From: an uncultured Porphyromonadaceae bacterium
GTDB lineage: Bacteria; Bacteroidota; Bacteroidia; Bacteroidales; Barnesiellaceae_A
Assembly: GCA_937891845.1 (NCBI GenBank)
Contig: CALATP010000026.1
Span: 26,429-90,428, forward strand
DNA length: 64,000 bases
Direction: 5' to 3'
Position numbers and translations under genes: made by a program. Under the pieces are notes generated by a model. The model was not told the DNA's origin, ran no database searches, and saw only the letters and a program-made list of their open reading frames with translations. Below are positions 9,988 to 63,910 of this stretch, in pieces. Every line of letters starts with the position of its first letter. Position 1 is the stretch's first letter.

Positions 9988-9994
9988 GAACATT

Positions 9995-11256: not shown

Positions 11257-11263
11257 AATTAAT

Positions 11264-12571: not shown

Positions 12572-13642
12572 ATGGCATATATAAATATTAAAAATGTAAA
12601 AATTCGAGGAATGGCAGCGTGTGTTCCCGAAAGAGTTGAGGAGAATAGAGATTATCCATTATTGTCAAAGGAAGAAATAGAAAAATATATTTCTGCTACA
12701 GGCGTTGAGCGTCGCCATTGTGCTGTCCACGATGGAAGTATTTGTACTTCTGATTTATGTATGAAAGCTGCAGAGAAGCTTATTGAAGAGTTGAAATGGG
12801 ATAAGTCTGAAATTGATTTGCTCATCTTTGTTTCGCATACAACAGATTATAAACTTCCGGCAACTGCAATTGTACTCCAGGATAAAATGGGGTTATCGAA
12901 AAAATGTTTAGCATTTGATATAACGTTAGGATGTTCTGGATATATGGTAGGAATGGGTGTCATTGGCAATATGATGTCTTCGGGTACTTTTAGAAAAGCC
13001 TTACTGATGGTAGGAAATACGCAATCTGAGTATGCCAGTTTTGAAGATAGAAGTATGTATTTGTTGTTAGGTGATGCTGGCACGGTATCTGCGTTAGAAT
13101 ATAATCCTAACGAGTATGATGAAATGGACTTTTGTTATATGAGTGATGGTAACGGTCGTAATTTTGTAATACTTCCAGACGGAGGATCGCGTAATCCTGT
13201 TAATGAAAAGTCTTTTATTATGGAAGATTGTGGAGATGGTATTAGACGCTCTCGTTTGCACGAAAAGATGGAAGGTGTTGAAGTCTTTTCATATGCGATG
13301 TCAAATGTTCCCAAATGCTATAAAGAGCTTTTAGAGAGAACAAATCTTCTACCGGAAAATATAGATTATTACCTATTGCATCAAGCAAACAAATTCCTGT
13401 GTGAAAAATTGCGTAAGAAGTTGAATGCTCCTATAGAGAAAGTTCCATATAATATTTCAGAGTTTGGTAATACAAGTGGTGCTACCATCCCTCTGTTAAT
13501 GGTCACTAACTTGGGTAAAGAAATGGGAACGAAACCATTAGAGTTGGCTATGGCTACAATAGGAGTGGGTTTTTCATTGGCGACGGGTCGTATTAAATTA
13601 TCTCAAGGCGATTTTGTTTGTCCTCCATTATTAACATTATAA
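12572..13642 (+). CDS. 3-oxoacyl-ACP synthase III (FabH-like KAS III)
   Basis: Candidate Cys/His/Asn triad contexts (LGCSGYMVG, LLHQANKF, GNTSGATIP). ATG 12572 preferred over the TTG at 12545. Confidence 0.85.
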   Translation: MAYINIKNVKIRGMAACVPERVEENRDYPLLSKEEIEKYISATGVERRHCAVHDGSICTSDLCMKAAEKLIEELKWDKSEIDLLIFVSHTTDYKLPATAIVLQDKMGLSKKCLAFDITLGCSGYMVGMGVIGNMMSSGTFRKALLMVGNTQSEYASFEDRSMYLLLGDAGTVSALEYNPNEYDEMDFCYMSDGNGRNFVILPDGGSRNPVNEKSFIMEDCGDGIRRSRLHEKMEGVEVFSYAMSNVPKCYKELLERTNLLPENIDYYLLHQANKFLCEKLRKKLNAPIEKVPYNISEFGNTSGATIPLLMVTNLGKEMGTKPLELAMATIGVGFSLATGRIKLSQGDFVCPPLLTL

Positions 13643-13653
13643 AATTTAAGAAG

Positions 13654-14397
13654 ATGTATAATCCTTTTTCATTAGAAGGTAAAACAATTTTGGTTACTGG
13701 CGCATCTTCCGGATTAGGGAAAGGTATTGCTATTGATTGTTCTAAAATGGGTGCTAATGTCTATATTACTGCTCGAAATGAGGAACGATTAAAAGAAACA
13801 CTTGCTTTGATGGATGGTGTAGAAAATAGACATATAATTGCTGATATGTCTACTGAAAAAGATATTGATTTAATTGTTGATTCTTTACCAATAGTTGATG
13901 GTGTTGTATTATGTGCTGGAATTATTAAAACGATGCCTGTGAAAAATATTACAGATAGTGCTGTTCAAGAGATATTTGATGTTAATATAATGTCGAATAT
14001 AAAGCTTTTAAGTCGTTTGCTAAAAAAGAAAAAATTATCGAGGGGGGCATCTGTAGTTTTTATTTCATCTGTATCAACGTTTAATGTTAAAGTTGGTAAT
14101 TCTTTATATTCTGGAACGAAAGGAGCTGTTAACTCGTTTGCTAAAGCGATGGCGTTAGAAGTTGCGAAACAAAATATGAGAGTAAATTGTATTCAGCCTG
14201 GTTTTGTACCATCAAAGATATTGGATAATAGTGGTATTGAGTCTGATGATATTTTAAATTGGTATAAAGAGCGCCATCCGCTTGGTTTTGGTACACCATC
14301 AGATATAGCTAATGGTTGTATATATCTTTTGTCTGATGCGTCTCGGTGGGTTACTGGTAGTATATTTACCATTGATGGTGGTTATACTTTGCAATAA
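13654..14397 (+). CDS. SDR-family oxidoreductase (FabG-like 3-oxoacyl reductase)
   Basis: TGASSGLGKG cofactor motif and the YSGTKGAV (YxxxK) catalytic motif. Confidence 0.85.
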   Translation: MYNPFSLEGKTILVTGASSGLGKGIAIDCSKMGANVYITARNEERLKETLALMDGVENRHIIADMSTEKDIDLIVDSLPIVDGVVLCAGIIKTMPVKNITDSAVQEIFDVNIMSNIKLLSRLLKKKKLSRGASVVFISSVSTFNVKVGNSLYSGTKGAVNSFAKAMALEVAKQNMRVNCIQPGFVPSKILDNSGIESDDILNWYKERHPLGFGTPSDIANGCIYLLSDASRWVTGSIFTIDGGYTLQ

Positions 14398-15035
14398 TGA
14401 AAGTTGAAAGAATCATAAATTCACCTCTCCCATCAAATGCATACGTTATTTGGAATGAGAGTAATCGTCAGTGTATCATAATAGACCCAGGAACACCTCA
14501 CCCATATAAAATAATAGATTTATGTGATAAATTTAATTTAAAACCTGAGGCTATTATATTGACTCATTTTCATTTTGATCATGTTTGGGGGGCTAATTGT
14601 TTAAGAGAAAAATATGACTGCTCAATAATTTGTTCTCAAAGGTGTGCAGAAAAACTAATGATACCACAAAACTATTTTAATTTATTATATTTTAATGATG
14701 AATCTATGTTTTCCATTGAGAATATAGATGTAATTATAAATGATAATATTGAGATGGATATTGCCGGTATTATGCTTAAATTTCTTATGACACCAGGACA
14801 TACAGATTGTTCATTATGCATTTGTATTGATAATATGATTTTTACAGGAGATACTATTATGAATGGTTATAAGCCTATAATAAAGGCTAAACATGGTGGT
14901 AGTAAAGAAGACTTTAGTAATACTTTGAAAGAATTTTTTATGAGCCAAGATTTAAATAGTATAATATACCCGGGACATGATGATTGTTTTGTATTGTCTG
15001 AAGTGAAAAGTTTTTATGAAATATATATAAAATAA
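14397..15035 (+). CDS. MBL-fold metallo-hydrolase
   Basis: HFHFDHVWG (HxHxDH) plus downstream TPGHT and GHDD. Start overlaps the stop of the SDR gene. Confidence 0.8.
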   Translation: MKVERIINSPLPSNAYVIWNESNRQCIIIDPGTPHPYKIIDLCDKFNLKPEAIILTHFHFDHVWGANCLREKYDCSIICSQRCAEKLMIPQNYFNLLYFNDESMFSIENIDVIINDNIEMDIAGIMLKFLMTPGHTDCSLCICIDNMIFTGDTIMNGYKPIIKAKHGGSKEDFSNTLKEFFMSQDLNSIIYPGHDDCFVLSEVKSFYEIYIK

Positions 15036-16692: not shown

Positions 16693-17247
16693 ATGACACC
16701 CATATATAACGAAGAGATTGTCATCGAGAAACTGCAAAATCCGCGCACTGCACGTGAGGCTTTCGGACAGGTTGTCGAGCATTATGGCGAGCGCATTTAT
16801 TGGCAGATTCGTAAGATGGTTGTTTCGCACGAAGATGCCGATGACCTCTTACAGAACACCTTCCTCAAAGCCTGGAACAGCATCGAATTCTTTCGCGGCG
16901 AGGCTCGTCTATCTACTTGGCTCTACCGTATTGCTGTCAACGAGACCATCACTTTCCTCAATCGCGAGCGGCAACGCAACAACATATCCATCGATAGCGA
17001 CGACAGTTTTCTGCTCAACAACATCGAGGCCGACGAGTGGTTCGATGGTGACGACTTGCAACTACGCTTGCAACGTGCTATTGCGCTATTGCCTGAGAAA
17101 CAACGACTTGTATTCAATATGCGATACTTCGATGAGATGAAATACGAGCAAATTTCCGAAATTCTTGGCACATCGGTAGGAGCGCTTAAAGCATCATACC
17201 ATCACGCGGCCAAAAAAATTGAAGAATATTTGTTATCTCACGATTAA
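16693..17247 (+). CDS. RNA polymerase ECF-type sigma-70 factor
   Basis: Region 2 (DADDLLQNTFLKAW, STWLYRIAVN) and region 4 (LPEKQRLVFNMRYFDEMKYEQISEILGTSVGALKASYHHA). Confidence 0.9.
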   Translation: MTPIYNEEIVIEKLQNPRTAREAFGQVVEHYGERIYWQIRKMVVSHEDADDLLQNTFLKAWNSIEFFRGEARLSTWLYRIAVNETITFLNRERQRNNISIDSDDSFLLNNIEADEWFDGDDLQLRLQRAIALLPEKQRLVFNMRYFDEMKYEQISEILGTSVGALKASYHHAAKKIEEYLLSHD

Positions 17248-17294
17248 ACCATTTATACATTTTGGTGTCAAAGCAATGTAAATACACTCAAAAG

Positions 17295-17657
17295 ATGAAA
17301 AAGAAGGAAGATATACTACAACAAATAGGCGGCAAATCGGGATTTAAAGTTCCCGATGGTTACTTCGAGCAGCTATCTTCGCGCATTACCGAGCAGTTGC
17401 CCGAGCGCGAAATTCCCGAACCCGAGGTTATTACCACTTGGCAACGTTTGCGCCCATATATCTATATGGCCGCTATGTTTGCCGGTATATGGCTTATGGT
17501 ACAAGTTTTTGTAGCTCCTCACGTTCAGCCCGAACAGGCTCTCACTGCCGATGCTCAGGAGGCCACAACCGAGATGGATGAAGAGTTAGAAGACTATCTC
17601 ATCTATTCGATGGACGAGTACACAATCTTCGAGACGCTTTATGCCGATAGCGAATAA
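17295..17657 (+). CDS. putative anti-sigma factor / single-pass membrane protein
   Basis: About 120 aa with one central hydrophobic helix (YIYMAAMFAGIWLMVQVFV). Immediately downstream of the ECF sigma gene. The function is assigned from position only. Confidence 0.45.
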   Translation: MKKKEDILQQIGGKSGFKVPDGYFEQLSSRITEQLPEREIPEPEVITTWQRLRPYIYMAAMFAGIWLMVQVFVAPHVQPEQALTADAQEATTEMDEELEDYLIYSMDEYTIFETLYADSE

Positions 17658-17681
17658 CAAACAAAATAATACAATAGCATT

Positions 17682-18140
17682 ATGAAAAAATACATAGCAC
17701 TTATCATTTTCTCCATCGCATTGCTCACTCCCATTACCTCGATGGCACAACGTGGCGATGATCGTTCTGCGGCACGTCATCAACGTTGGGAACAATTCCG
17801 ACAAGAAAAGCACGAGTTCTATGCTCGTATGTTGGAGCTTACCGACGAGCAAGCCGCTCAATTCTTCCCACTTTTCGACGAGATGGAGAAGAAGAAGTTT
17901 GAAGCTGCTCGTGAAGTTCGTCGCGAAGCTCGCACCATTTCCGAGAGTGAAAACGTTACCGACGAGCAGTACAAAGCAGCTGCCGACCGTGCCGCCGCTC
18001 TTGCCGCGCGTGAATTGGCTATCGAGAAAGAGTATTACGCCAAGTTCTGCCAGATACTCACCCCTCGCCAGCAGTTCCTATACCACCGCTGTGACCACGA
18101 GTTCCAAAAACATCTCATCAATAAGAAAAAAGGTAAATAA
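17682..18140 (+). CDS. periplasmic LTxxQ-motif (Spy/CpxP-like) protein
   Basis: Signal peptide (ALLTPITSMAQ), helical charged protein with two LTxxQ motifs (LTDEQ, LTPRQ). Confidence 0.6.
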   Translation: MKKYIALIIFSIALLTPITSMAQRGDDRSAARHQRWEQFRQEKHEFYARMLELTDEQAAQFFPLFDEMEKKKFEAAREVRREARTISESENVTDEQYKAAADRAAALAARELAIEKEYYAKFCQILTPRQQFLYHRCDHEFQKHLINKKKGK

Positions 18141-21382: not shown

Positions 21383-22576
21383 TTAGAACGCTTCCGACAT
21401 CCCAAACACAATACCGCTCGTGCCTTTACCAAATCCGTAGTCTACCCGCACATTTACATTGTGTTTGAACTCAAATCGCAAACCTATACCATAGTTGATG
21501 AGTAAGTCATCTCCTTTCAGTTCCTTGAACGACGGGAATACAGTGCCACAGCCCACCCAAGCCACAGCTCCCAAGCGTTTATATACTCTTTGGCGCAATT
21601 CTATCTGACCACTCATTATGTTATTGTCTATATAACGGCCGGCGTAGTAGCCTCGCATTCGCGCGCCTCCCGCTCCCAGCTCGGCTCGCAACGGCCACGG
21701 CACATCTGTACCGTTATACTGCCCATACAGGTCTAGTGCCATTACCGAGCCTTTCCACAAGCGTTGGTAATAATTGGCTGTCAGGGTAGTAGAGAATATA
21801 TTCTGTCCGCTTGTTCCCAATGGACGTGGATAATAAACCTCTTTCAGCATTATATAAAATCCTCGTTGCGGATTGGGTATAAAATCGCGTGTATCATACA
21901 CTATAGATGCACCTATTCCGGTAAAGAAATACGACGTCTCTTGTCCTTGCAGGTACGATAAGTTGTCTATTTTCGATAAGAATGTGTACCGTAAATTTAG
22001 GGCGGCTCCTATATGAAAGTGTGGCGTTATCTTATATACATAGTCACTCTCTAGTTTCAGGTGACGGCGTGTATATTTGCTCTTTTCGTTTATGGCGCAA
22101 GCATCATACGAGATACCCCAAAAGTCCAATGGCTTGTTTTGGAAGGCAAGGTCATAAGTCAGTCGCGCCCGGTCGCGCTTGAAAAGGTGATTTCCCTTGA
22201 AGATAAAACTATATTGTCCTGTCAGAGATATGTTGGCAAATATCTGTGCATCGGATGGCGACATCAACGAATCGGTGCGATCCGTTCTATACAATCCTGT
22301 CACCATTCCTCCTATTCCGAAACTCGCCTCTCGTGAATATGAGGGAAGGATGGCAAAACTTATATCCAGCGGTTTTTCAAACGTTTTATCCTTATGACCG
22401 CCTATCAACTGCTTGATAAACTTTTGGAAGATGTTATCTTTCTTTACCGTGATACTGTCTGTGACTATACTGTCGCTCAAAGCCGAGGTCGGCTCTGTGA
22501 TAACCATACCGTAGCCGGGGCAGTATGCAATTACAGTCAATATAAGAAATATTATTATAAGTAGTTGTCGCTTCAT
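21383..22576 (-). CDS. Omp85/BamA-TamA-family outer-membrane beta-barrel protein
   Basis: Signal peptide, alternating beta-strand pattern, and a C-terminal aromatic end (GIVFGMSEAF). Confidence 0.65.
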   Translation of the reverse strand: MKRQLLIIIFLILTVIAYCPGYGMVITEPTSALSDSIVTDSITVKKDNIFQKFIKQLIGGHKDKTFEKPLDISFAILPSYSREASFGIGGMVTGLYRTDRTDSLMSPSDAQIFANISLTGQYSFIFKGNHLFKRDRARLTYDLAFQNKPLDFWGISYDACAINEKSKYTRRHLKLESDYVYKITPHFHIGAALNLRYTFLSKIDNLSYLQGQETSYFFTGIGASIVYDTRDFIPNPQRGFYIMLKEVYYPRPLGTSGQNIFSTTLTANYYQRLWKGSVMALDLYGQYNGTDVPWPLRAELGAGGARMRGYYAGRYIDNNIMSGQIELRQRVYKRLGAVAWVGCGTVFPSFKELKGDDLLINYGIGLRFEFKHNVNVRVDYGFGKGTSGIVFGMSEAF

Positions 22577-22828
22577 TCCACGTTCCTATTATCCTATTGA
22601 GATTTTACAATCTGTTATAAAACGTCATTTCTATTATTATATTGTGTTGCCGGACTATTTTGATTACCCGTTTTGCAACTTTTGTGTGATTTTTAAACAT
22701 ATTTTATAGTATTAATTCTATTCCCTATGCACCTTTGCTATATTACTTTACAGCTATTATCATATCATTAATACCCGCTTGAGATGATTGCGACTCATTC
22801 ATAAGTTGTAAATCCCAATTATTTTCTT

Positions 22829-22836
22829 TATATTTG
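22829..22836 (+). promoter_or_regulatory. Bacteroidota -7 promoter box (TATATTTG)
   Basis: Exact match to the TAnnTTTG consensus, 238 nt upstream of the portal-like ATG. No plus-strand gene lies upstream. Confidence 0.45.
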
Positions 22837-22923
22837 CACAATAAAATTTGATGTTATGTAAGGGAACATTGTTCCCGCAAAGATATTCCCCTCCCTAATT
22901 TATGGGAACACTCTCAATGAGTG

Positions 22924-22968
22924 GACAGTGCCGATCCTCTGTGAAGACCGTCGGCATTGTTTTTTTTA
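22924..22968 (+). terminator. intrinsic terminator inside the portal-gene leader
   Basis: gacagtgccgat / gtcggcattgtt stem (12 bp including 2 G-U) with a 14-nt loop, running into T7-8 (tttttttt). Plus-strand orientation only. Confidence 0.6.
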
Positions 22969-23073
22969 TATGACTGTTGATACATACGTTTGCCGCTTCT
23001 CGTTTCTCTCTATCGCACAATTGTGTTATATATCGATGTTTATTTTGCAGCGGTAAACCATTAAAATTCTATT

Positions 23074-24993
23074 ATGAAATCCAATGACTTTATGAAGCCT
23101 CACTATCAAGCCTTGCTGCAGTCCGACCGTAGCAATGCCGATGTGGCGGGCACCTTTATGCAACAAGATAATGAATTGCTCAACAAGGCACACGATGCGT
23201 GGAATGCTATGGCAACTTATAGGCAATGTCGCACACGCAATCGCAATTATACCTACGGAAAACAGTGGGTCGATCCCATCTCACTTGCCGATGGTCGCGT
23301 GCTTTCGGAGGAACAATATCTTCGCGAACAAGGCAAAGTGCCGCTCAAAAACAACCTCATCCGGCAGCTTGTCAAGAGTGTAATAGGACAGTTTAGAAGT
23401 GCCCAGACCGAGCCGGTGTGTATCTCTCGCGAACGCAAAGAACAATCATTGGGCGAAATTATGAGTGTCGTTATGCAATATGCCTATCAGCACAATCGGC
23501 TCTATGAACTCGACAGCCGCTCGCTCGAAGAGTTTCTCATTTCTGGTTCTTGTTTCCATAAGATTGGCTACGGAAATCGTCGCGGAAAAACCGATGTGTG
23601 GATAGATGCCGTACAACCTTCTCGTATCTTCTTCAACACGATGGAAGATTGTCGCCTGTGGGATTGCAATCTCATTGGCGAGTTGCACGATATGACTCTC
23701 AATGACGTTATAGCACGTTTTGCCGGTGGTAGCCCGCAGAAGGCTCGACACCTCCGACAAATATTTGGAGATGCAACCGATGTCAGTCATTACAACTCTA
23801 TCGACACTGCTTCGGCTCAACGTTTTGATTCAATTAACTTTTTTGTACCCGACAATTCTCACCATTGTCGCGTTATTGAGCTATGGACACTCGATAGTCG
23901 TGAGATGTTGCGTTGTCACGATACTATGTCGGGACAATTCTACAAAGTTGATGTTGCACTCGCACACGACGTAGAAAAAGAAAACCAACGTCGTAGGGAT
24001 GAAGCTGCATCGCGAGGTATCGAGGCCGCTCAAGTGCCCATTATCGAGACCGAATGGTTTCTGGAGAACTATTGGTACTACCGTTTCTTCTCTCCATTGG
24101 GACATATTCTTGATGAAGGCGAGTCGCCCTATTGGCACGGTGAACATCCTTATTCGTTGCGCCTTTACCCTATGATCGATAGTGAAATTCACTCCTTTGT
24201 CGAAGATGTCATTGACCAACAACGATATGTCAATCGACTCATTACTATGATCGACTTCATTATGGGTAGCAGTGCCAAGGGTGTACTATTATTCCCCGAA
24301 GACCAAATACCCGATGGAATGTCTCTCGATGATATCGCTACGGAGTGGACTCGTTGCAATGGTGTGATTCTCTTCCGGCCCAAGCCCGGTTGTGCTATGC
24401 CTCAGCAGATTGCTGTAAATGCAACTAATGTAGGTGCTTACGAACTATTATCCTTGCAGATGCGACTGCTCGAAGATATTTCGGGGGTACACAGTGCCAT
24501 ACAAGGCAAGGCTGTACCTTCGGGAACGGCATCTTCCCTATATGCTCAGCAAGTGCAATATTCGGCTGTCAATTTGCTCGACCTTTTTGAGTCCTTCAAG
24601 GCTTTTCGTGAGGAACGTGACACAAAGTTGATGAAAACTATTCAGCAATTCTACGACGAGAACCGTTACAAACTTATTGCCGGTGATGATAACTTCGATA
24701 CCGATAGTATCACACCCGAGAGAGTACGAAATGCCGAGTTCGATATTGTTATTGCCGAGTCGGCGTCTGCCCCTGCTTTCCGTCAGATGTCTAATGATTT
24801 TCTTTTGGAACTTTTCCGTTCTGGCCACATTTCGTTGCAAGCGCTACTCGAAACAGGCACTTTCCCTTTTGCCGACAAACTTTTACAATATGTCAACTCC
24901 GAGCAACAGCAACAAATGCAAATGATGGCTGCTCTCTCGCAGCAACAAGCTCCCGGTTCTTCATCACCGACAGCTCAACCTGCACAACTTTAA
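23074..24993 (+). CDS. phage portal (head-tail connector)-like protein
   Basis: 639 aa. N-terminal RNRNYTYGKQW-type motif, then a long alpha/beta core and a Gln-rich C-terminal tail (SEQQQQMQMMAALSQQQ). Overall resemblance to podovirus-type portals, judged by eye only. Confidence 0.6.
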   Translation: MKSNDFMKPHYQALLQSDRSNADVAGTFMQQDNELLNKAHDAWNAMATYRQCRTRNRNYTYGKQWVDPISLADGRVLSEEQYLREQGKVPLKNNLIRQLVKSVIGQFRSAQTEPVCISRERKEQSLGEIMSVVMQYAYQHNRLYELDSRSLEEFLISGSCFHKIGYGNRRGKTDVWIDAVQPSRIFFNTMEDCRLWDCNLIGELHDMTLNDVIARFAGGSPQKARHLRQIFGDATDVSHYNSIDTASAQRFDSINFFVPDNSHHCRVIELWTLDSREMLRCHDTMSGQFYKVDVALAHDVEKENQRRRDEAASRGIEAAQVPIIETEWFLENYWYYRFFSPLGHILDEGESPYWHGEHPYSLRLYPMIDSEIHSFVEDVIDQQRYVNRLITMIDFIMGSSAKGVLLFPEDQIPDGMSLDDIATEWTRCNGVILFRPKPGCAMPQQIAVNATNVGAYELLSLQMRLLEDISGVHSAIQGKAVPSGTASSLYAQQVQYSAVNLLDLFESFKAFREERDTKLMKTIQQFYDENRYKLIAGDDNFDTDSITPERVRNAEFDIVIAESASAPAFRQMSNDFLLELFRSGHISLQALLETGTFPFADKLLQYVNSEQQQQMQMMAALSQQQAPGSSSPTAQPAQL

Positions 24994-25025
24994 TATTTAC
25001 ACCGATGATGGGGCGGTTTTTCAAG

Positions 25026-25059
25026 AGGCTGTATCAAAATGAAAATTATGGTACAGCCT
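25026..25059 (+). terminator. intrinsic terminator after the portal-like gene
   Basis: aggctgta / tacagcct stem (extendable with one wobble) followed by ttttctggttt. Sits 33 nt after the stop. Confidence 0.55.
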
Positions 25060-25223
25060 TTTCTGGTTTCTATGGCTTGACATAATTCAGGGCGTGTGTG
25101 CATTACGGCATCCTGCACTTTTCTGCTATATACGTTGCTCTTTACCATTATGCATCTTTCTCAATATATAATGTCAATATCTTAAATATTTACAAAACGT
25201 TACTCTCTCTCAAAAAAATAAAC

Positions 25224-25231
25224 TAAATTTG
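25224..25231 (+). promoter_or_regulatory. -7 promoter box (TAAATTTG)
   Basis: TAnnTTTG match 32 nt upstream of ATG 25263. Confidence 0.4.
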
Positions 25232-25262
25232 TTCCCTAATATTTAATATATTACATTACAAT

Positions 25263-26129
25263 ATGAAAAAGATTATCATCTCGCTATCACTTCTTTTCAC
25301 AGTGATATTTACTTCGCAGGCCATCAACCCCGACAGTGTACGTTATAAACATCAATCTACCGATACAGCGCGTATCACAGAGGTTCTCAATGCCACTCGC
25401 AATGCGCAATTGCAATCTCCTGCCGATCGTATTACATTTATTGCCGGTCAATTCTTGGGCACTCCCTATGTTGCTGCTACACTCGAAGGCGAACCCGAGA
25501 TGCTCACTGTCAATACATCCGAGTTTGATTGCACAACATTTGTCGAGACCGTTATTGCTTTGGCTCTCACTGCGGATGTCGATTCGACTACATATCTCGA
25601 TTTTATCGACAACCTTGCCGCTTTGCGTTATCGCAACGGAGTGGTGGACGGATATGCATCACGCCTGCACTATGTGACCGACTGGATAGCTTGTAATTCC
25701 GAACGTAATATCTTTACCGAAATTACCAATCAAAATCCTCGTGTGGCTCACAAAAAAATCTCGTTGAATTATATGTCAAAGCACCGTCGTAGCTATCCCG
25801 CTTTGGCTTCCAACAACGAGGCTTATAATGCCATTCTCGATGTTGAGAAACCTTTCCTCAATTATAATATGCCCTACATCCCTAAGGCCGCTGTGGGGAC
25901 ACCGCAATGTAGCAAATGGCTCAAAAATGGTGATATCGTTTTTATTACCACATCTTTACAAGGTCTCGATGTAACGCATATGGGTATCATCGTATTTCAA
26001 CGAGGTATGCCATACCTCTTGCACGCATCATCAAAGGGCAAGCAAGTTATCGTCGATCCGCAACCCCTTAGCAACTATTTGCAGTCCAACAGCAATGCTA
26101 TCGGCATTCGTGTCGTAAGGCTCAACTGA
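25263..26129 (+). CDS. DUF1460 / N-acetylmuramoyl-L-alanine amidase-like secreted protein
   Basis: Signal peptide, then FIAGQFLGTPYVAATLEG...EFDCTTFVETVIALAL and a THMGIIV region typical of DUF1460. Confidence 0.6.
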   Translation: MKKIIISLSLLFTVIFTSQAINPDSVRYKHQSTDTARITEVLNATRNAQLQSPADRITFIAGQFLGTPYVAATLEGEPEMLTVNTSEFDCTTFVETVIALALTADVDSTTYLDFIDNLAALRYRNGVVDGYASRLHYVTDWIACNSERNIFTEITNQNPRVAHKKISLNYMSKHRRSYPALASNNEAYNAILDVEKPFLNYNMPYIPKAAVGTPQCSKWLKNGDIVFITTSLQGLDVTHMGIIVFQRGMPYLLHASSKGKQVIVDPQPLSNYLQSNSNAIGIRVVRLN

Positions 26130-58449: not shown

Positions 58450-60429
58450 CTAGAACGAGGCTTCGTTGATGATATTGTTGTGTCGTGTGTATGTGATAAC
58501 GGCGGTAGGTTCTTGTTGTGCAACGTATAGTCCGATGCATCGAGTAATGAGTATGTCGTCGTGTTCGCCTTCTTGTGCGCCATAACTGCCGTTGGGCTTG
58601 CGTTCAAACACGTCAAACTCGTGACAAGCCATCTCGTCGTGTTCGATGTAGTTGTTGTTGCGCAGAGCATTTATCATCGTATTGATGATGATGTTCTTGG
58701 TGTTGCGATTCATATGAAACCCCCATCTTGTCGGTGCCGAGAGTGCTATTTCGTCGCCGGTCATCTGTCGGGCATATAGATTGTTGTAGTGTCGTGCAAT
58801 GGTGTCGAGGATGTAGAACGGACGTGCATCGTCGTGCTCGGTCTCGAGTGTATTACTTTCGATGACCAACAGAGCTTTGTTGTAGAATGTTGCTATCTGA
58901 GCAGCTTTCCACGCCAAAAGGTCGTGGTCGATGTGTCCGCGCCATTGGGCTACCAGCTCTATTGTGTTGTCGATGTTGAGTCGAGAACGGTCAAATACGG
59001 CGATGACCGAAAAATCGGCTTTGCTTGAGCGTCCGCCAATGTCTACGGCAACGATGTATTGGTTGCGAATGATACGTGACGGTTGAGGCATTTGCCATAT
59101 TTTTAGGAGTCCTGTCGATTCTTGTCGGAAGTCGATGCCTGATAGTGCTTTATGTCCGGTTATGTCGTTGGCTACGAGCTCGCCCACAGCGATGGGAGTA
59201 GAACAGTTGTCGCGCAGTCGTTGTATGGCAATCGGGTCGAAAACTCGTTCGAGAGAATGAGCAAAGGCTTCGGTCTCGTCGGATGGATATTCGGCCATCA
59301 TATCGGCATGGTGGGAGTATTCTCGTAGTTTGGCACGATACCACGCAATGGCTTCGAGAGTAGCCCCCATCTGCCATAGCCACTTTTCGTATCGGTTGAG
59401 AGAAGAAGCAAATGCGTGATAGTCGTCGATGGGTTGGCTATACATCTCTATTTCGTACCAGGGAACAAAAATAGCAGTTTTGTCGCTCTCGTTGCGCTTG
59501 GCTCTGAGGTACTCGCGATGGAAGTAACCACCAGTTCCATTGGCAGTGCTTTCTATTACAACGATAGAGTGCGGCAATAGTGCAATACTGCCGTAAATGG
59601 ATCGGATGAGACTCTCGGGCGTATGAGCCGGAGTGTTGCTCCAGAATGCAGCCTCACTGAGGTGTGCCATTGCGATGTCGTTGCCACGAATGGCTTCGGG
59701 CGACTCGGCCGAGCATATTGTGACTTTGCAATTGCGTTGAGCTATCAATGAGGTGTTGGAAGAGCGTTCAAATGGTTGAAAATGTGGTGTGTCCGGTGCG
59801 CCAATGAGCCACGCCGGATAGTTGCTGAGTAGCTTTGTGTACATACCCTTGATGTTGGCAGCAGCATCTTTGAGGTGGGCGCAGATGATGCTGTTCCAGT
59901 TGTGTAGGTGAACGAGTTGTATCCAGGCCATATACACTTGAGTGAGTGTAGAACCACCCCATTGTCTGGCCTTGAGCATAATGATGCGTATGGGCTTGTG
60001 TGCGCAACGTTGCGTTTCGAGCAACTCGAGGTATCGTCGTTGAGGCCGGTTGAGGATGAAAGGAACGTCGTCTTGTCCCATTTTGTCTTTGATCTTGACA
60101 AACATAGCAGCCCAAAACTCAAAGTCGTGTAGAATACGCTCTTTTATCCATAATGACCAGATGTCGCTGCGCAGTCGCCTTGAAGGGCGTTTTTTGAGAT
60201 GTCGAGAAATAAAAGTGTCGATGCTGCCGGCTTCGACCAAAAGCCTAACCCAATTGCAGCTGTCGAGCATAGTATGTGGAATGTATTGCTCGGTGATGGG
60301 AGCATCGGAAAGAGTAACAAGAGTGCGTTGCGCACCACACCCTTCGCCCGTAGCGGGGTTGTAGGTGTGGTGAGAGGCACTTTTGCGACGATTGTTCTCG
60401 GAAATAATGTCGTTGATGTCTTGTAGCAT
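58450..60429 (-). CDS. terL: phage terminase large subunit-like protein
   Basis: ATPase motifs LKARQWGGST (Walker A-like), IAMAHLSEAAFW (Walker B position) and VIESTANG (motif III). C-terminal RNase H-like nuclease signature (VAVDIGGRS...DFSVIAV, EGEHDDILITR). Confidence 0.7.
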   Translation of the reverse strand: MLQDINDIISENNRRKSASHHTYNPATGEGCGAQRTLVTLSDAPITEQYIPHTMLDSCNWVRLLVEAGSIDTFISRHLKKRPSRRLRSDIWSLWIKERILHDFEFWAAMFVKIKDKMGQDDVPFILNRPQRRYLELLETQRCAHKPIRIIMLKARQWGGSTLTQVYMAWIQLVHLHNWNSIICAHLKDAAANIKGMYTKLLSNYPAWLIGAPDTPHFQPFERSSNTSLIAQRNCKVTICSAESPEAIRGNDIAMAHLSEAAFWSNTPAHTPESLIRSIYGSIALLPHSIVVIESTANGTGGYFHREYLRAKRNESDKTAIFVPWYEIEMYSQPIDDYHAFASSLNRYEKWLWQMGATLEAIAWYRAKLREYSHHADMMAEYPSDETEAFAHSLERVFDPIAIQRLRDNCSTPIAVGELVANDITGHKALSGIDFRQESTGLLKIWQMPQPSRIIRNQYIVAVDIGGRSSKADFSVIAVFDRSRLNIDNTIELVAQWRGHIDHDLLAWKAAQIATFYNKALLVIESNTLETEHDDARPFYILDTIARHYNNLYARQMTGDEIALSAPTRWGFHMNRNTKNIIINTMINALRNNNYIEHDEMACHEFDVFERKPNGSYGAQEGEHDDILITRCIGLYVAQQEPTAVITYTRHNNIINEASF

Positions 60430-60435
60430 ACGTGA

Positions 60436-60687
60436 TTAGAGTTTTTTGAGTTGTTTTTCGATCTCGGCAATGCGATTGAGTGTATCGCTGAAAGCATCTT
60501 GTTTGTTGCCGTTGGGAGCCATCAGTGCTGCCATATCCTTGCGAATAATCTCAATGCACTTGATGAGTACTGTTTCGTTGGTTGTTTCGCGCAAAACGTC
60601 GAGCAGACGGTCGTAACAGATGTGAATGGCTTCGTTCTGCTTGGCGAGTAGTGACGCGATGTCGTTCAAATTGAAAATTTCTGTCAT
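60436..60687 (-). CDS. small helical hypothetical protein (in the position of a small terminase subunit)
   Basis: 83 aa from ATG 60687. Its stop lies 6 nt before the terL start. No motif, so the suggestion rests on position only. Confidence 0.4.
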   Translation of the reverse strand: MTEIFNLNDIASLLAKQNEAIHICYDRLLDVLRETTNETVLIKCIEIIRKDMAALMAPNGNKQDAFSDTLNRIAEIEKQLKKL

Positions 60688-60743
60688 AAATATTAAAAAT
60701 TTAAAGTGTTGAAATGTGCGATACCTTTTATCGCATCGAGATG

Positions 60744-60751
60744 CAAAGTTA
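60744..60751 (-). promoter_or_regulatory. -7 promoter box (TAACTTTG on the minus strand) for the terminase operon
   Basis: The reverse complement of caaagtta matches TAnnTTTG, 57 nt upstream of ATG 60687. Confidence 0.4.
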
Positions 60752-60757
60752 GAGCGC

Positions 60758-60769
60758 GATATTTGCACA
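60758..60769 (+). promoter_or_regulatory. near-consensus -7 box (GATATTTG) for the divergent plus-strand genes
   Basis: One mismatch to TAnnTTTG. Shares the 11-mer ATATTTGCACA with the portal promoter at 22830-22840. Sits 40 nt upstream of ATG 60806. Confidence 0.3.
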
Positions 60770-60805: not shown

Positions 60806-61351
60806 ATGCTTAATGAAATGTTTAATTGGGCGTATGATTACGCCTTTAAGAGTTACTCAAACAAGAAAAAGAGAGACTCGTATAACGAGTTGTATAACAA
60901 ACAGCTACAACATTACAACACTCGTCTGGGTGCAGCTACATCGTTGTTCAATCACGCCTATTATCGTAACTATCTTGATACTCCCAATGCCCGTAATATG
61001 CTGAAACGGGTGCGAGAGCAACTCTCGGAGCAAACACGCAAGTTGCGTAATGCCGGTGTCGTAACCGGTGCTACAAGTGAAGCGATAGCAGCACAACAAA
61101 AGAATAATAATAAGTTGATAGATAATGTGATAGGAACACTTGCCAATGCCGATGCTGCTCGAAAAGATCGCGCGTTGGAGAATTATGCCAATGAGCGAAG
61201 TCGCTTGTCCGATTATTTGTTTCAGGCCGATATAAATCGTTATGGCAAGTTGTATGAGTTGGAGCAGGAGGAGCTGATGGATAATGCAAAATTCTGGAAA
61301 CCTATTGCTTCAATGTTTTCGCAAAGAATAGAAGATTTGATCAATAAATAG
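60806..61351 (+). CDS. coiled-coil hypothetical protein (phage-associated by context)
   Basis: 181 aa, Asn/Lys/Arg-rich helical sequence. First gene of the plus-strand unit divergent from terL. Confidence 0.5.
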   Translation: MLNEMFNWAYDYAFKSYSNKKKRDSYNELYNKQLQHYNTRLGAATSLFNHAYYRNYLDTPNARNMLKRVREQLSEQTRKLRNAGVVTGATSEAIAAQQKNNNKLIDNVIGTLANADAARKDRALENYANERSRLSDYLFQADINRYGKLYELEQEELMDNAKFWKPIASMFSQRIEDLINK

Positions 61352-61353: not shown

Positions 61354-61677
61354 ATGATGAGTGAGAGAAATTGTAAAGCCGGCTCGATGCAAGGCGTGGG
61401 CGAGGCAGGTGCAACCGGTGTTGCAGAAAGAGAGTGTGGGGTGGCCGGCAATGATGTGCTGAATGAGTTGCAAGAGATGTGCCGATGTGTGAGTCGCGGA
61501 AGAAGATGTGGCATGCACAACGGTGTGTCAGCCTTGTTGCGCTCGTGGTATATGCCACGTGATGTGTATGATGTCGAGTGTTACAAGCGACGTTTCTATG
61601 TGTTACGTGGGTTGCAAGCTATATTAAGTGAGATATTGAACAAACAAAAAAAAGGTGGAAATGAAACAGAACATTGA
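61354..61677 (+). CDS. small Cys-rich hypothetical protein
   Basis: 107 aa with 7 Cys. Starts 3 nt after the previous stop and overlaps the next gene by 23 nt. Confidence 0.4.
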   Translation: MMSERNCKAGSMQGVGEAGATGVAERECGVAGNDVLNELQEMCRCVSRGRRCGMHNGVSALLRSWYMPRDVYDVECYKRRFYVLRGLQAILSEILNKQKKGGNETEH

Positions 61678-63910
61678 AGATAGAGATTACGAAGAGAATA
61701 ATCTGTTGGAATATTTGCCTCGACATATGTGGGGAGGAGATGTAAAAAAGGTTATTGAAGAAAATGACCTGTATAGAGGCAATCCCAATGCTCTTACGAC
61801 TTTGGAATATCGTAGTCCGATATATAGACCCGAAGAGCGTACGATGCCGAGTTATGTGATGAGATTTTTGTTGGAAAAGTCACAGAGGACAGCAACGGAT
61901 TTTGGTGCAAATTTGATGAGAAGATTGATGCAATATCAAAATTCGACATCGCATTTGCAAGAAGATGAGTCGTATTTAGAACCTTTGAGTCACTCGTTGA
62001 GATTTCCTCATCGACGAGACGATATGCCACCGATGGCAATGCCCGAGACGGGAACTGTGAGTGTGGGTGCGCCGGGTAATGATGGCAAACCGGTGAGCAG
62101 TGCGACTCCATCGAGTGCCGGGGGTGTAGAATCGGGTGCCACAGAAACTTCTCCTACGTACAATCATAAAACAACAGATGGCGAAGAGAATGTCGTGAAA
62201 CGATTTGATGAAGGTGTGCAGACCGCCTTCAATCAGATAGAGTTGTCGTGGGACTATCTGATGAAGAATGTAGAGAAGTTTTTTACCAAAGATCCGGCGA
62301 AACGGCAAAGTCTGGACTACAAATTGTACGAGATAGGGCAAAAGTATGCCGCCATACCCAAGACACTGGGAGCAGCGACAGTGGGAAACATAGGTACTAA
62401 TATAGTGGCAGGAGCATTGCCCGTAGCTATAGCCGGAGTGGTGGGAGGTACGTCGGGAGCTGCCGTTGCCGGAGGTGCAATGGCTGTTACCGATATAGCC
62501 AATACTATAGCAAGTGCCAATTTGGAAATGGATGGTTATGAGAGCGCAACGGGTGAGAAGTTGTCGGGTGCTACACGTTCGGCGTATGTTATATCGTCGG
62601 TTGCGTCGGGACTGATTATGGATGCAATTATGGTATTACCTTTTATGAAAAAACTCACTCCGTCCTTGCGTAAAGACGTGAACAAGCAGTTGCAACAAGC
62701 CATTTTCAATAATCCTGTTTCACAGCGGGAGTTTAATGTGATGACCCAGCAAGTGTTGCGCAATGAGTTGCCCTATTGGAATAAGGTACTGATGGGAAAT
62801 GCATTGGAGTCGGGTGTAGGCGGAGGCTTGTCGGCCGGATTGCAAGAGGCGAGTCGCAGTATCTATACACGTGAGGCACCTGAATTGTCGCAAATAGTCA
62901 CTTCAACATTGACCGGAGTGGCAGTGGGTGCAACGCAAGGTACGTTGGGTACGGCAGTGAAACGATATAATTTGTCGCAAGAGCGCGCCGGTAGTGACGA
63001 AACCTTCTATGTGAGCAACCAATTCCGAAAGTCGAGTACAGGGCAGGAGATAGCCGAGTTGCGACCTACTGCGATAGAGCAGTCGGACAGCGGAGAGACT
63101 TATGTAAAGGGTCATATTGTCAATCCCGGCGGTGATATTGAAGCCGAGCAGGTATTTCCGATAGAGAATGTTTCGGTGGGGTCGTATCGAGGTGCGCAAG
63201 AGTCGGGTGCTACTAATGTGACTTGGAAAGACTTGTATAAGATACCGGATGAGCGCATAAAGATGTATAATGACAAGTGGAATGAAGCTCGTATCAAGTA
63301 TGATGATGAAGCCAGACGTGAGGAGGCCTATGCCGCGCAGAGTGATATTGTGCAGGGTATAGCGCAAGAGATGGGTATTCCTGTGACTGTGTATGCCAAA
63401 CTGGAAGACTTGCCAAAGGAATTGCAGAATAATCCGGAGGTGATAAATTCGTATGCAGTGACTGTGGAAGATGATGAAATCTTGTTGGTATTAGATCAAT
63501 GTCAGGGCTTGACCGCCGACAATATAGCAGCCGTTCTTCGTCACGAGGCAATAGGTCACTATGGTTTGCCCAAATTGTATGCCGACAATGCCGATTATAA
63601 TAAAGTAATCTATGACTTGGGAAAGAAGATTCTCAAATCGAAGAAACCTACTATGGTGTTTGATGATAATAATGCGGCCAGACGCCAGCATATTATGGAG
63701 GTGGTGGAGGAGTATATATCGCGTAATGCCGAGCCGCGACCGTATAATGCGGCCCACTTGCAACACAATCCATATGACTTGGTATATGATATGTTGGTGC
63801 GCAGTGACAAGAACTTGTTGAATATGACTATGAATGAGAAGCGTAAGAGAGCCAGGATGGCCGGTAAGCCAATGCCTCGTCTTTTGGGTAACAGTCCGTA
63901 TTTTGATTGA
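61655..63910 (+). CDS. large phage-associated protein (internal/minor-head or polyvalent-type; function unknown)
   Basis: 751 aa. Gly/Ala-rich hydrophobic tract (GAATVGNIGTNIVAGALPVAIAGVVGGTSGAAVAGGAMAV), HEAIGH segment, charged C-terminus. Confidence 0.5.
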   Translation: MEMKQNIEDRDYEENNLLEYLPRHMWGGDVKKVIEENDLYRGNPNALTTLEYRSPIYRPEERTMPSYVMRFLLEKSQRTATDFGANLMRRLMQYQNSTSHLQEDESYLEPLSHSLRFPHRRDDMPPMAMPETGTVSVGAPGNDGKPVSSATPSSAGGVESGATETSPTYNHKTTDGEENVVKRFDEGVQTAFNQIELSWDYLMKNVEKFFTKDPAKRQSLDYKLYEIGQKYAAIPKTLGAATVGNIGTNIVAGALPVAIAGVVGGTSGAAVAGGAMAVTDIANTIASANLEMDGYESATGEKLSGATRSAYVISSVASGLIMDAIMVLPFMKKLTPSLRKDVNKQLQQAIFNNPVSQREFNVMTQQVLRNELPYWNKVLMGNALESGVGGGLSAGLQEASRSIYTREAPELSQIVTSTLTGVAVGATQGTLGTAVKRYNLSQERAGSDETFYVSNQFRKSSTGQEIAELRPTAIEQSDSGETYVKGHIVNPGGDIEAEQVFPIENVSVGSYRGAQESGATNVTWKDLYKIPDERIKMYNDKWNEARIKYDDEARREEAYAAQSDIVQGIAQEMGIPVTVYAKLEDLPKELQNNPEVINSYAVTVEDDEILLVLDQCQGLTADNIAAVLRHEAIGHYGLPKLYADNADYNKVIYDLGKKILKSKKPTMVFDDNNAARRQHIMEVVEEYISRNAEPRPYNAAHLQHNPYDLVYDMLVRSDKNLLNMTMNEKRKRARMAGKPMPRLLGNSPYFD

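Follow-up and report, generated by a model that had tools for sequence, protein, structure and literature searches.

Phage genes that bacteria have domesticated are known in the form of entire clusters, as in GTAs, tailocins and contractile injection systems, and the terminase, portal, scaffold and capsid genes of known GTAs are held together in one head cluster. GTAs and viriforms such as RcGTA, BaGTA and FpGTA, the last represented by the Faecalibacterium FpGTA I/II operons (PMC12946183), are phage-derived, vertically inherited, maintained under purifying selection and devoid of replication and integration genes. Phage satellites (PICI, cf-PICI, P4-like and PLE) are another type of incomplete set, in which packaging or assembly genes need the shell proteins of another element. 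In addition, the polyvalent proteins of phages that encode a portal and terminase are believed to be packaged into capsids and then injected, and host-resident remnants of such proteins have been proposed as a possible means of defence (Iyer et al., PMC5512222). In the Bacteroides temperate phages BKO1-TP3, BS-TP4 and BF1-TP2, portal and terminase genes occur in one structural region with scaffold, SU10-type capsid and tail genes, and the genomes also carry lysis, replication and integrase genes (PMC12694917). A literature search for orphan portal or terminase genes in Barnesiella or the Bacteroidales returned no description.

The stretch of Barnesiellaceae DNA analysed here (64,000 nucleotides, hereafter the window) encodes a monocistronic portal protein homologue of 639 aa on the + strand (23074..24993). 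The first-pass annotation had proposed a full-length, portal-like gene with an N-terminal YTYGKQW motif and a Gln-rich C-terminal tail, and all of these features are present: the reading frame has zero internal stops, NYTYGKQW occupies residues 58-65, and the tail reads EQQQQMQMMAALSQQQ... The profile searches against portal families that it suggested were significant. The Pfam profile PF16510 (P22_portal) matched with E = 2.2e-38 and 132.6 bits against a cut-off of 26.1, aligning ORF residues 40-626 to positions 5-572 of the 594 in the profile, and PHROG 156 (portal) matched with 251 bits (E = 4e-74). Sequence searches also aligned the N-terminal R-x-R-x-Y-x-x-x-Q-W region and C-terminal stretches of the ORF to portal chains in the PDB. 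An AF2 model built from a 28-sequence alignment was of low confidence (mean pLDDT 51.9, pTM 0.37), so its Foldseek matches are used qualitatively only; the best 42 matches in the PDB were all podovirus portals, with E-values down to 2e-8 and TM-scores of only ~0.2, and the order of secondary-structure elements in the model is that of podovirus portals. By Pfam, PHROG, PDB sequence and Foldseek matches, the ORF is a genuine podovirus-type (P22/SU10-like) portal protein. It shares with P22-like and SU10-like portals (Pfam PF16510, with P22 gp1, Sf6 gp3, SU10, PhicrAss001, GP4 and Pan3 among the solved structures) a near full-length profile match, the R-x-R-x-Y-x-x-x-Q-W region and the C-terminal stretches. 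Unlike P22-like portals, however, it occupies a core-genome slot as a monocistronic gene, has no adjacent terminase, scaffold or capsid gene and evolves as host genes do. Identity to the portals of BKO1-TP3, BS-TP4 and BF1-TP2 is 41-47%, with BKO1-TP3 and BS-TP4 the closest phage relatives (46-47%), and the portal descends from the lineage of these temperate phages. No relative with more than 42% identity was found in IMG/VR.

As the first-pass annotation stated, the portal gene is placed among core genes. Upstream is a divergent Omp85 gene (21383-22576, - strand) and downstream an AmiA-like/DUF1460 amidase gene (25263-26129), followed by genes for an aldehyde dehydrogenase (Aldh) and UvrD/PcrA, and this Omp85, portal, AmiA, Aldh and UvrD slot is common to loci L001, L004, L005 and L062. 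The GC content of the portal gene (0.46) equals that of its surroundings. No tRNA, att site or replication genes were found at the locus, nor any integrase, capsid, scaffold or tail genes within 10 kb of the portal. The portal was intact in ~60 loci spanning genera, wherever the contig allowed, with no interrupted copies among them, and the subclades of the portal tree agree with genomic contexts. Its dN (0.20-0.23) is close to that of UvrD and Aldh (0.16-0.20), while dN/dS was 0.095 between shallowly diverged loci and 0.06-0.09 between deeply diverged ones, where divergence is saturated. The portal is therefore a resident, vertically inherited chromosomal gene of the Barnesiellaceae (Barnesiella, Coprobacter and relatives) that is subject to strong purifying selection and evolves at the rate of its core neighbours. 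The earlier view that the gene is maintained rather than decaying is upheld by the low dN/dS, the kept synteny and the intact copies; the slot is retained in several species, and the absence or pseudogenisation in close relatives that would have spoken against it was not seen. A decaying cryptic prophage was rejected, given the lack of frameshifts and stops, a dN/dS of at most 0.1 and a GC content like that of the surroundings.

We also consider it extremely improbable that the portal belongs to an active prophage or other mobile element with the rest of its genes beyond the flanks inspected. Related portals do occur in real prophages (L016, L037, IMG/VR contigs and the three isolated phages), but in the window the 33 kb that separates the portal from the large terminase gene consists of housekeeping genes (UvrD, NspC, RND efflux, rml/GDP-sugar genes, PorX-like, TsaE and AroA), the flanking genes co-diverge with the portal, and there is neither a GC deviation nor a tRNA. 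Furthermore, when 62.5 kb of the 65 kb of BKO1-TP3 was compared with the window, only the portal and terminase ORFs matched; that part of the phage integrase gene which fell within the compared sequence was unmatched.

The intergenic elements previously described around the gene fared differently on its two sides. Upstream, the proposed -7 box does exist as the string TATATTTG at 22829-22836, but it falls in a ~280-bp intergenic stretch that is missing from the syntenic loci L001, L004, L005 and L054, and the pattern TAnnTTTG is not enriched in the window (65 observed versus 52.8 expected), so the match at 22829 alone carries no weight. A GC-rich, terminator-like hairpin with a T8 tract on the + strand (22925..22967; z = -4.8 for the fold of 22836-23073), in the lineage-specific distal part of the intergenic region, stands between this box and the portal ATG. 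The simple long leader from 22829 that had been proposed is therefore unlikely, and no leader RNA was identified by Rfam in the whole window. Downstream, the hairpin plus T-tract reported after the gene is real. This intrinsic-terminator-like element (25023..25069, + strand) follows the portal stop codon and combines a 14-bp stem at ~25023-25062 with a U-rich tract (centroid energy -20.4 kcal/mol, z = -3.0 versus shuffles). It was missed by a simple terminator scanner because its loop exceeds 8 nt, and the scan for sigma-70 promoters and simple terminators (22500-25300) was uninformative for a Bacteroidota genome.

A homologue of the large terminase (TerL) is encoded elsewhere in the window, on the - strand among core genes (58450..60429, 659 aa; SSB and AroA nearby). 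It matched phrog_2 (terminase large subunit, E = 6.5e-24), with no match in Pfam, and is 44% identical (E = 4e-173) to BKO1-TP3 gp51, a protein annotated as 'tail spike' whose gene adjoins the portal of that phage. TerL aligns with T4 gp17 over the Walker B and nuclease (HDD) regions, and the KARQWGGST, HLSE, ESTA, VDIGG and HDD motifs are invariant between chromosomal and phage TerLs. By profile and by its intact ATPase and nuclease motifs, the product is a large terminase homologue, and the 'tail spike' label is thereby corrected in three recently published Bacteroides phages. Directly upstream of TerL and in the same direction is a gene for a c3-like small protein of 83 aa (60436..60687, - strand), whose position is kept in L061, L067 and L069. 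This protein had no family match, was not detectably homologous to the c3 proteins of the phage or the other clade, and may represent a candidate minimal small terminase or a regulator. Portal and TerL co-occur in Barnesiella sp. An55, and in a second (~40%) clade no TerL was found in the 10 kb around the portal.

Next to c3-TerL, and ~35 kb from the portal, is the c2-c7-c1 operon (60806-63910). The earlier statement that the portal gene sits alone thus holds for the nearest 10 kb but not for the window, where partner genes of the same phage module are found at 58.4-63.9 kb. The first gene encodes a c2-like protein of 181 aa (60806..61351, + strand) that is homologous to BKO1-TP3 gp57 (tblastn); in hhalign comparisons, it matched the second-clade c2 family, whose members have a hydrophobic N-terminus, with 97.8% probability (E = 1e-12) and the phage gp57 family with 97.7% probability. 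It is followed by a small protein of 107 aa at the c7 position (61354..61677, + strand), where L065, L067 and L069 also carry a gene. Homology of c7, as of c3, was undetectable between clades, and both are consequently treated as positional analogues only. The third gene encodes a c1-like protein of 751 aa (61655..63910, + strand) with a long Gly/Ala-rich hydrophobic region and an HEAIGH motif, and it matched the c1 family of the second clade with 99.1% probability (hhalign, E = 1e-18). Relatives of c1 in L008, L019 and L065 match residues 4346-4531 of BKO1-TP3 gp55, and the relative in L018 carries the Pfam domain LPD23. The c1 of the window itself had no Pfam match, a PDB sequence search gave nothing meaningful, and an exact look-up of the protein with two start codons returned no record. 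Searches of NCBIfam gave no matches. The operon evolves rapidly, with dN of ~0.6 for c1, c2 and c7; c1 is only 38.5% identical to its counterpart in L069, and in the second clade c1 ranges widely in length (1118-1887 aa).

By these similarities, c1 corresponds to the conserved core of gp55, a giant DarB-like polyvalent protein of the phage. With P1 Dar and other polyvalent proteins it shares homology to the DarB-like core, an HExxH motif, the LPD23 domain of a relative and an association with portal-terminase genes. In contrast to these proteins, it is a host-resident 751-aa core that has lost the effector domains and is placed behind a putative promoter specific to the host lineage. A full polyvalent protein, with multiple effector and LPD domains, was rejected as an identity for the window c1 in view of its lack of Pfam matches, and since it is homologous to the core of gp55, c1 is regarded as a derivative rather than a full member of the group. 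Overall, the window shares with BKO1-TP3, BS-TP4 and BF1-TP2 the portal, TerL (44%), a c2 homologue (gp57) and the C-terminal core of gp55 (PMC12694917). It differs from the phage module in that this subset is split over 2-3 loci among housekeeping genes, c1 has only ~750 aa and the promoter motif is different. The arrangement of the dispersed genes also varies among lineages. For example, the c3-TerL and c2-c7-c1 module is kept between core genes in L067 (Coprobacter fastidiosus) and L069, while in B. viscericola genes for ferritin and H+-PPase are interspersed among those for the portal and c2-c7-c1; c26, a 734-aa protein adjoining the portal in B. viscericola-type loci, was considered as a TerL candidate and proved to be an H+-pyrophosphatase.

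Although dispersed, these genes share promoter-like sequences. A bipartite motif, TATCGCA-N26-TTTGCA, occurs on the + strand at 23011..23049, ending 25 nt before the portal ATG, and again at 60729..60767, ending 39 nt before the c2-like ATG; these are the only two matches in the 64-kb window, against ~0.1 expected. The same motif with the same spacing precedes the portal in L062, L001, L004, L005, L054, L053 and L009, and in L069 the orthologous site is present and faces c2. With the slightly shorter form TATCGCA-N26-TTTG, all 12 of the 12 matches in 458 kb were directly upstream of portal, c2 or TerL. A sister lineage of the B. viscericola type uses CTGCCAYAA-N23-TTTGC in the same manner, with 0 matches elsewhere in 434 kb. 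As the motifs were defined after the sequences had been seen, these statistics are optimistic. The motifs are nevertheless conserved and co-vary by lineage among the dispersed genes, and scattered units with the same lineage-specific bipartite motif look like a regulon, so that portal, c3-TerL and c2-c7-c1 would be placed under a predicted common promoter. None of the three sequenced related phages has the chromosomal motifs; they share a motif of their own (GTAAAAAGATAAA), and trans-activation by those phages is therefore unsupported. The portal had been described as a self-contained transcription unit; it belongs instead to a dispersed, phage-derived set with a common lineage-specific promoter motif, and is physically alone but probably not functionally so.

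The same evidence bears on whether the genes could be an inert remnant of an old prophage, scattered by rearrangement, not yet degraded and without current function. The clear phage origin, the loss of most phage genes and the different fragmentation of the module in each lineage are what such a remnant would leave. Nonetheless, dN/dS of 0.06-0.095, ~60 intact loci across genera, invariant TerL motifs and co-varying promoter motifs strongly disfavour this explanation, which we regard as very improbable.

No shell genes were linked to these loci. Of 22 viral contigs from IMG/VR, all 22 had TerL no more than 10 kb from the portal, 20 had scaffold and 19 had MCP. By contrast, none of the 60 chromosomal portal loci had MCP or scaffold genes at this distance, and none of the 4 TerL loci had an MCP gene; the 21 portal loci of the Barnesiellaceae lacked TerL, MCP and scaffold alike over this range. 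Nor were head or tail genes detected among the hypothetical neighbours or elsewhere in the 10 kb around each module. When the SU10-type MCP of the phage was used as a query, the best 120 matches were all Bacteroides prophage proteins with at least 82% identity, and a search of 50%-representatives returned ~30 candidates at 40-57% identity, without names or context. As in GTAs and viriforms, the structural genes described here are phage-derived, vertically inherited and under purifying selection, lack replication and integration genes and occupy several separate, apparently co-regulated loci. Unlike in GTAs, no capsid or tail genes were found near the modules, portal and TerL can each stand alone, and the system is known from its genes alone. 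The incomplete packaging or assembly set, needing the shell proteins of another element, is reminiscent of phage satellites. However, the module has no integrase, att site or replication genes, and its distant, split loci lie in core flanks and are syntenic and vertically inherited across species, and thus not mobile, so a satellite of the PICI, P4 or PLE type was rejected.

The best explanation, to which we assign a probability of roughly 0.6, is a domesticated, co-regulated portal-terminase packaging module that acts on capsids encoded elsewhere; the identity and domestication of the genes, taken on their own, are highly probable. A dedicated regulator, for which c3, the nearby ECF sigma factor (16693-17247) and hyp246 are candidates, would fire the common promoter of three transcription units (portal, c3-TerL and c2-c7-c1). 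The portal would form the usual dodecameric ring, on which the TerL ATPase/nuclease would dock and pump DNA, and c1, c2 and c7, which are related to polyvalent proteins carried inside the capsid and injected, would be loaded via the portal or close by it. The module would thereby comprise a virion's whole portal vertex, motor and cargo, with the shell coming from elsewhere. If that shell were built from unlinked chromosomal capsid and tail genes, the system would be a GTA-like viriform with unusually dispersed loci, a tentative reading that is slightly favoured over shells from a resident or infecting related phage, which appear rather unlikely. Shell genes were never linked in ~64 loci, yet are adjacent in the ancestral phage type, which argues against their co-domestication, and because capsid, scaffold, adaptor and tail genes were not located, particle formation is purely inferred.

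One form of phage-supplied shell would make the module a helper-dependent packaging pirate or defence, in which portal, terminase and internal proteins enter the procapsids of an infecting or induced BKO1-TP3-like phage. Like an immobile satellite, it would either sabotage phage assembly (defence) or divert shells to host DNA (helper-dependent gene transfer). The kept subset is exactly portal vertex, motor and cargo, without linked shell genes although these are adjacent in the ancestral phage type, and two separate clades (the Barnesiellaceae and the ~40% clade) retain the same c2-c7-c1-portal subset. In addition, c1, c2 and c7 evolve fast, like conflict proteins, second-clade c1 varies greatly in size, the strong conservation of the SU10-type capsid across Bacteroides prophages would offer a stable target, and the defensive use of host-resident polyvalent remnants proposed by Iyer et al. 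(PMC5512222) is in keeping with this role. However, portal and TerL evolve slowly, as core genes do, are inherited strictly vertically and keep a stable synteny, all of which is unusual for a defence system or satellite; none of the six proteins (portal, TerL, c3, c2, c7 and c1) had a match in PADLOC-DB v2, integrase, att site and replication genes are absent, and the chromosomal promoter motifs do not occur in the three related phages. We also know of no Barnesiella phage with a matching shell, and on balance consider this alternative unlikely, though less so than any that dispenses with capsids altogether. Under that last alternative, the portal ring, the terminase ATPase/nuclease and the hydrophobic c1 and c2 would form a cell-envelope device for DNA or protein translocation. 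The absence of shell genes near every module, the hydrophobic stretch of c1 and N-terminus of second-clade c2, the retention of all TerL catalytic motifs and the putative dedicated promoter are consistent with such a function. However, no membrane or secretion signal has been added to the portal sequence, phage ejection proteins would be just as likely to have hydrophobic segments and, to our knowledge, no portal or large terminase functions outside capsids, making a capsid-independent role improbable.

For the packaging module favoured here, no earlier description was found of a portal and terminase long kept as separate, co-regulated host genes without a linked capsid. It is possible, though we propose it with reserve, that only the portal vertex, motor and injected-protein core became fixed, in the Barnesiellaceae and independently in another clade of Bacteroidales, as a capsid-less, dispersed regulon, which would commandeer phage shells (for defence or helper-dependent transfer) or serve capsid-independent translocation. 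If true, a portal-motor-cargo regulon without its own capsid would be a previously undescribed form of phage domestication. The common promoter motifs make the regulon directly testable in the cultivable Barnesiella and Coprobacter. Depending on the source of the shell, the module would represent either a new bacterial way to exploit or sabotage phage capsid assembly, or an undescribed GTA-like system in abundant gut Bacteroidales, with consequences for horizontal gene transfer in the microbiome.

The ORF at 23074..24993 (+) encodes an uninterrupted 639-aa protein with the residues NYTYGKQW at positions 58-65 and a glutamine-rich C-terminal tail; size, motif and tail are the features on which the first-pass annotation had called it portal-like. 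Profile searches place it within the P22-like portal family, with Pfam P22_portal matched along almost its entire length (E=2.2e-38) and PHROG 156 'portal protein' at E=4e-74, and its sequence could be aligned with those of solved podovirus portals. An AlphaFold model built with 28 homologues as input was of low confidence (pLDDT 52), and its best 42 PDB matches were podovirus portals only (Pan3, PhicrAss001, GP4, P22, Sf6 and SU10), giving qualitative support for the same identity. Similarity to portals, whose absence would have counted against the first-pass reading, was thus found at the profile level. The nearest portals in sequenced phages (41-47% identity) belong to BKO1-TP3, BS-TP4 and BF1-TP2, three isolated Bacteroides temperate phages (PMC12694917), and a search of IMG/VR returned no relative closer than 42% identity.

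As previously annotated, the portal gene is flanked by a divergent Omp85 gene (21383-22576, -) and by genes for an AmiA-like/DUF1460 amidase, an aldehyde dehydrogenase and UvrD/PcrA, while more distant genes encode an ECF sigma factor, RsmD, DUF3822, a RecD-like helicase, NspC, an RND efflux pump and dTDP-/GDP-sugar functions. At 0.46, the GC content of the portal is the same as in its surroundings, and no tRNA genes were found across the window. The ECF-type sigma factor and two small proteins (120 and 152 aa) without family match occupy 16693-18140, 5 kb upstream of the portal, a unit whose synteny is kept in the related loci L004, L005 and L062; the sigma factor is a candidate regulator of the non-canonical promoter. 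Positions 1-15000 hold a same-strand gene run of markedly low GC (0.30-0.36 versus about 0.46 elsewhere) that adjoins a DegT-type aminotransferase and looks like a horizontally exchanged surface-polysaccharide locus, and its L062 counterpart encodes glycosyltransferases, an ATP-grasp TupA and Bac_transf.

The hairpin and T-tract annotated downstream of the portal proved real (14-bp stem, about -20 kcal/mol, z = -3.0, U-rich tail). The proposed -7 box promoter at 22829 is unsupported, as TAnnTTTG is not enriched in the window (65 matches versus 52.8 expected), the box falls within an intergenic stretch missing from syntenic species, and the box is separated from the portal start codon by a strong + strand terminator (hairpin plus T8, about 22925-22967). 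Between Omp85 and the portal, the distal half of the intergenic region (22577-22990) is lineage-specific, has a strong predicted fold (z = -4.8) and closes with a textbook intrinsic terminator on the + strand, though no + strand gene lies upstream; it could represent a small RNA gene or an inserted element, and an Rfam scan of the whole window gave no match.

Relatives were sampled by a scan with one genome per species, yielding 58 loci. The slot Omp85|portal|AmiA|Aldh|UvrD is common to L001, L004, L005 and L054, where flank identity is 51-90% and portal identity 69-72%, and to the near-identical loci L062-L064. The portal differs from that of L062 by 23 nucleotides and 6 amino acids (dN/dS 0.095) and from those of L001 and L005 by dN of 0.20-0.23 with saturated dS (dN/dS 0.06-0.09), with dN and dN/dS on par with UvrD, Aldh and other core neighbours. 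No frameshifted or stop-interrupted portal copies were found, loci missed by a crude gene caller being contig truncations or caller artefacts, and close relatives therefore retain both the syntenic slot and an intact gene. The central idea of the first-pass annotation, a maintained portal gene outside any prophage, is thus upheld by synteny, dN/dS of 0.06-0.095 and core-like context. The same selection, synteny and context data make it improbable that the gene is an inert remnant, and highly improbable that it belongs to an active mobile element.

Clustering the flanking genes of all loci led to the recognition of a second chromosomal portal clade, which shares about 40% identity with the portal of the window and comes from ruminant and gut 'Bacteroidaceae' MAGs. 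Its module order is c3(-) | c2 c7 c1 portal(+), with the portal always the final gene (L015-L058, e.g. L018 4059-11887), and in many genomes the module is inserted between atpHAG and ligA/dapA. The giant c1 protein is highly variable in size (1118-1887 aa) and contains an HExxH motif and, in L018, the Pfam LPD23 'large polyvalent protein' domain. In the divergent promoter region, c2 is preceded by the long palindrome GGTTGCTGTAATGACA...TGTCATTACAGCAACC (16 bp, perfect), after which comes TTTCTTTTGCA. In some lineages a further gene of phage origin (cluster c20, 683-880 aa) adjoins the portal: in L006 (7324-9666) and L009 (upstream, - strand), as well as in L037, L047 and L049. It shares 27% identity (E=1e-64) with the uncharacterised BKO1-TP3 gp34 and may have been retained as an additional component.

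Searching the window with the partner genes of this clade revealed a second phage-derived locus at 58.4-63.9 kb (58450-63910), which shares a promoter motif with the portal, so that the earlier description of the portal as 'stand-alone' and 'self-contained' was wrong. The locus comprises a large terminase (TerL) homologue (58450-60429, -; 659 aa; phrog_2 E=6.5e-24; 44% identical to BKO1-TP3 gp51), a small c3-position gene directly upstream of it (60436-60687, -) and, divergent from these within 60806-63910 (+), a c2 homologue, a small c7-position gene and a c1 homologue (751 aa, HEAIGH). Profile-profile comparison between Barnesiellaceae and the second clade recovered homology for c2 (97.8% probability, E=1e-12), which extends to the phage protein, and for the c1 core (99.1% probability, E=1e-18), but none for c3 and c7, which are positional analogues only. 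In the 5553-aa 'DarB-like' protein of the phage, the counterpart of the c1 core is the HExxH region towards the C-terminus (residues ~4350-4530). None of the TerL catalytic motifs varies between the chromosomal proteins and those of real phages: a deviant Walker A (KARQWGGST), Walker B (HL(S/T)E), ESTA, VD(I/V)GG and HDD. TerL evolves slowly (75% identity to the related L069, dN 0.20), while c2, c7 and c1 have diverged rapidly (27-38% identity, dN about 0.6) yet are intact. Large terminases 44% identical to that of the window are labelled 'tail spike protein' in the three phages (BKO1-TP3 gp51, L059 22494-24608; BS-TP4 gp7, L070 20340-22436; BF1-TP2 gp60, L071 17818-19845), with secondary notes reading 'Terminase' or 'Terminase_6C'.

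The second locus is bounded by SSB/AroA and the window end, and its surroundings are housekeeping (SSB, AroA, a ZnuB-like permease, a PorX-like regulator and TsaE). The order c1<-c7<-c2 | c3->TerL is found again amid core genes, next to secA in Coprobacter fastidiosus and also in an L005-like species, where housekeeping DNA resumes past c1. In the complete B. viscericola genome, ferritin and H+-pyrophosphatase separate the portal from c2-c7-c1; Barnesiella sp. An55 has both portal and TerL. Further TerL genes are present in B. propionica, Ca. B. merdipullorum and Coprobacter spp., and an entirely solitary one in the 3.16-Mb genome L068. There (7028-12037) it lies directly downstream of a DpnII-type restriction-modification cassette of two methyltransferases and DpnII. 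A GH25 muramidase gene adjoining tsaE (49803-50549, -), about 8 kb from the window's TerL, has strong phage endolysin PHROG matches (E=2e-45), is syntenic in L069 and does not carry the promoter motif common to the portal and c2; it could encode a host autolysin or be one more gene of phage origin.

The defining genomic setting of the P22-like portal family is a virus or prophage with adjoining packaging and capsid genes, and this context was not found for the window's portal. In real phages the portal is accompanied by scaffold, SU10-type capsid, tail, lysis, replication and integrase genes; within 10 kb of the portal in 22 IMG/VR viral contigs, TerL was present in all 22, capsid in 19 and scaffold in 20. 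None of the three lay within 10 kb of any of 21 Barnesiellaceae or 39 second-clade portal loci, nor did capsid or scaffold genes lie within 10 kb of the four chromosomal loci found with TerL as query, and hypothetical neighbour proteins matched no phage structural families. A neighbour-joining portal tree contained two monophyletic chromosomal clades: the Barnesiellaceae clade, whose subclades agree with genomic contexts, groups as sister to the three isolated phages, and the second clade to the prophage-like loci L016 and L037, both with TerL and the former additionally with scaffold and capsid genes. On this phylogeny, the same phage gene subset seems to have been fixed at least twice.

Across species, conservation upstream of the portal is limited to the proximal part, where two boxes stand out, CTATCGCA around -60 and TTAYTTTG around -30. 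The bipartite motif TATCGCA-N26-TTTGCA has exactly two matches in the 64-kb window versus about 0.1 expected, a count reached in 0/100 shuffles and 0/300 first-order Markov randomisations, although such statistics are optimistic because the motifs were defined post hoc; the copies stop 25 nt short of the portal start codon and 39 nt short of that of c2. TATCGCA-N26-TTTG occurs 12 times in 458 kb of related loci, each immediately in front of a phage-derived gene and pointing towards it (portal in eight loci, c2 in the window and L069, TerL in Coprobacter L067). It is absent from the B. viscericola-type lineage, in which CTGCCAYAA-N23-TTTGC lies upstream of portal and c2 (L065, L066, L012), of c2 alone (L008, L013) and of the solitary TerL (L068), with no further match elsewhere in 434 kb. 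Replication across species, fixed spacing and within-lineage co-variation of the upstream box from one dispersed gene to the next form the pattern that a dedicated regulator and its regulon would produce.

The portal, the catalytically intact-looking TerL and the relatives of capsid-internal polyvalent proteins are host genes kept by selection, with a common promoter motif, and the sequence evidence suggests that the portal belongs, as one arm, to a dispersed portal-terminase-cargo regulon. Firing of the common promoter would lead the portal to assemble as a ring, on which TerL would dock and translocate DNA, while c1, c2 and c7 would be loaded as internal or ejection proteins; a shell would be needed. 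Loading of c1/c2/c7 is supported by knowledge of portal-terminase phages, including one case in which the HExxH region is needed for encapsidation (PMC5512222).

A shell encoded by unlinked chromosomal genes would make the set a GTA-like viriform, a reading consistent with its vertical, core-like evolution and to which we assign a probability of roughly 0.35. Against it, no module here has linked shell genes, whereas the head genes of known GTAs stay in one cluster. Multi-locus GTAs nevertheless have a precedent, for example in the FpGTA I/II operons (PMC12946183). It is slightly less likely that the shell is instead borrowed from a resident or infecting related phage, for defence by sabotage or helper-dependent gene transfer: exactly the shell-independent subset has been kept, twice, and c1/c2/c7 are fast-evolving, but turnover typical of defence systems was not seen and a PADLOC search gave no match. 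Moreover, neither chromosomal motif was found in BKO1-TP3, BS-TP4 or BF1-TP2, leaving trans-activation unsupported; these phages have their own common box, GTAAAAAGATAAA, before c2 and the scaffold/capsid operons. A capsid-independent role of the portal/TerL set is unlikely.

Taken as a whole, the set resembles GTAs and other viriforms in being domesticated, vertical, multi-locus and co-regulated, but differs in that no head/tail gene set was found near the modules. Like phage satellites it is an incomplete assembly gene set, but it has no integrase and is not mobile. No description of such a dispersed portal-terminase set was found in the searchable literature, and we classify it as domesticated phage structural genes in a form not previously described there, with a considerable chance, though below even, that it works in a way that is also not yet described.
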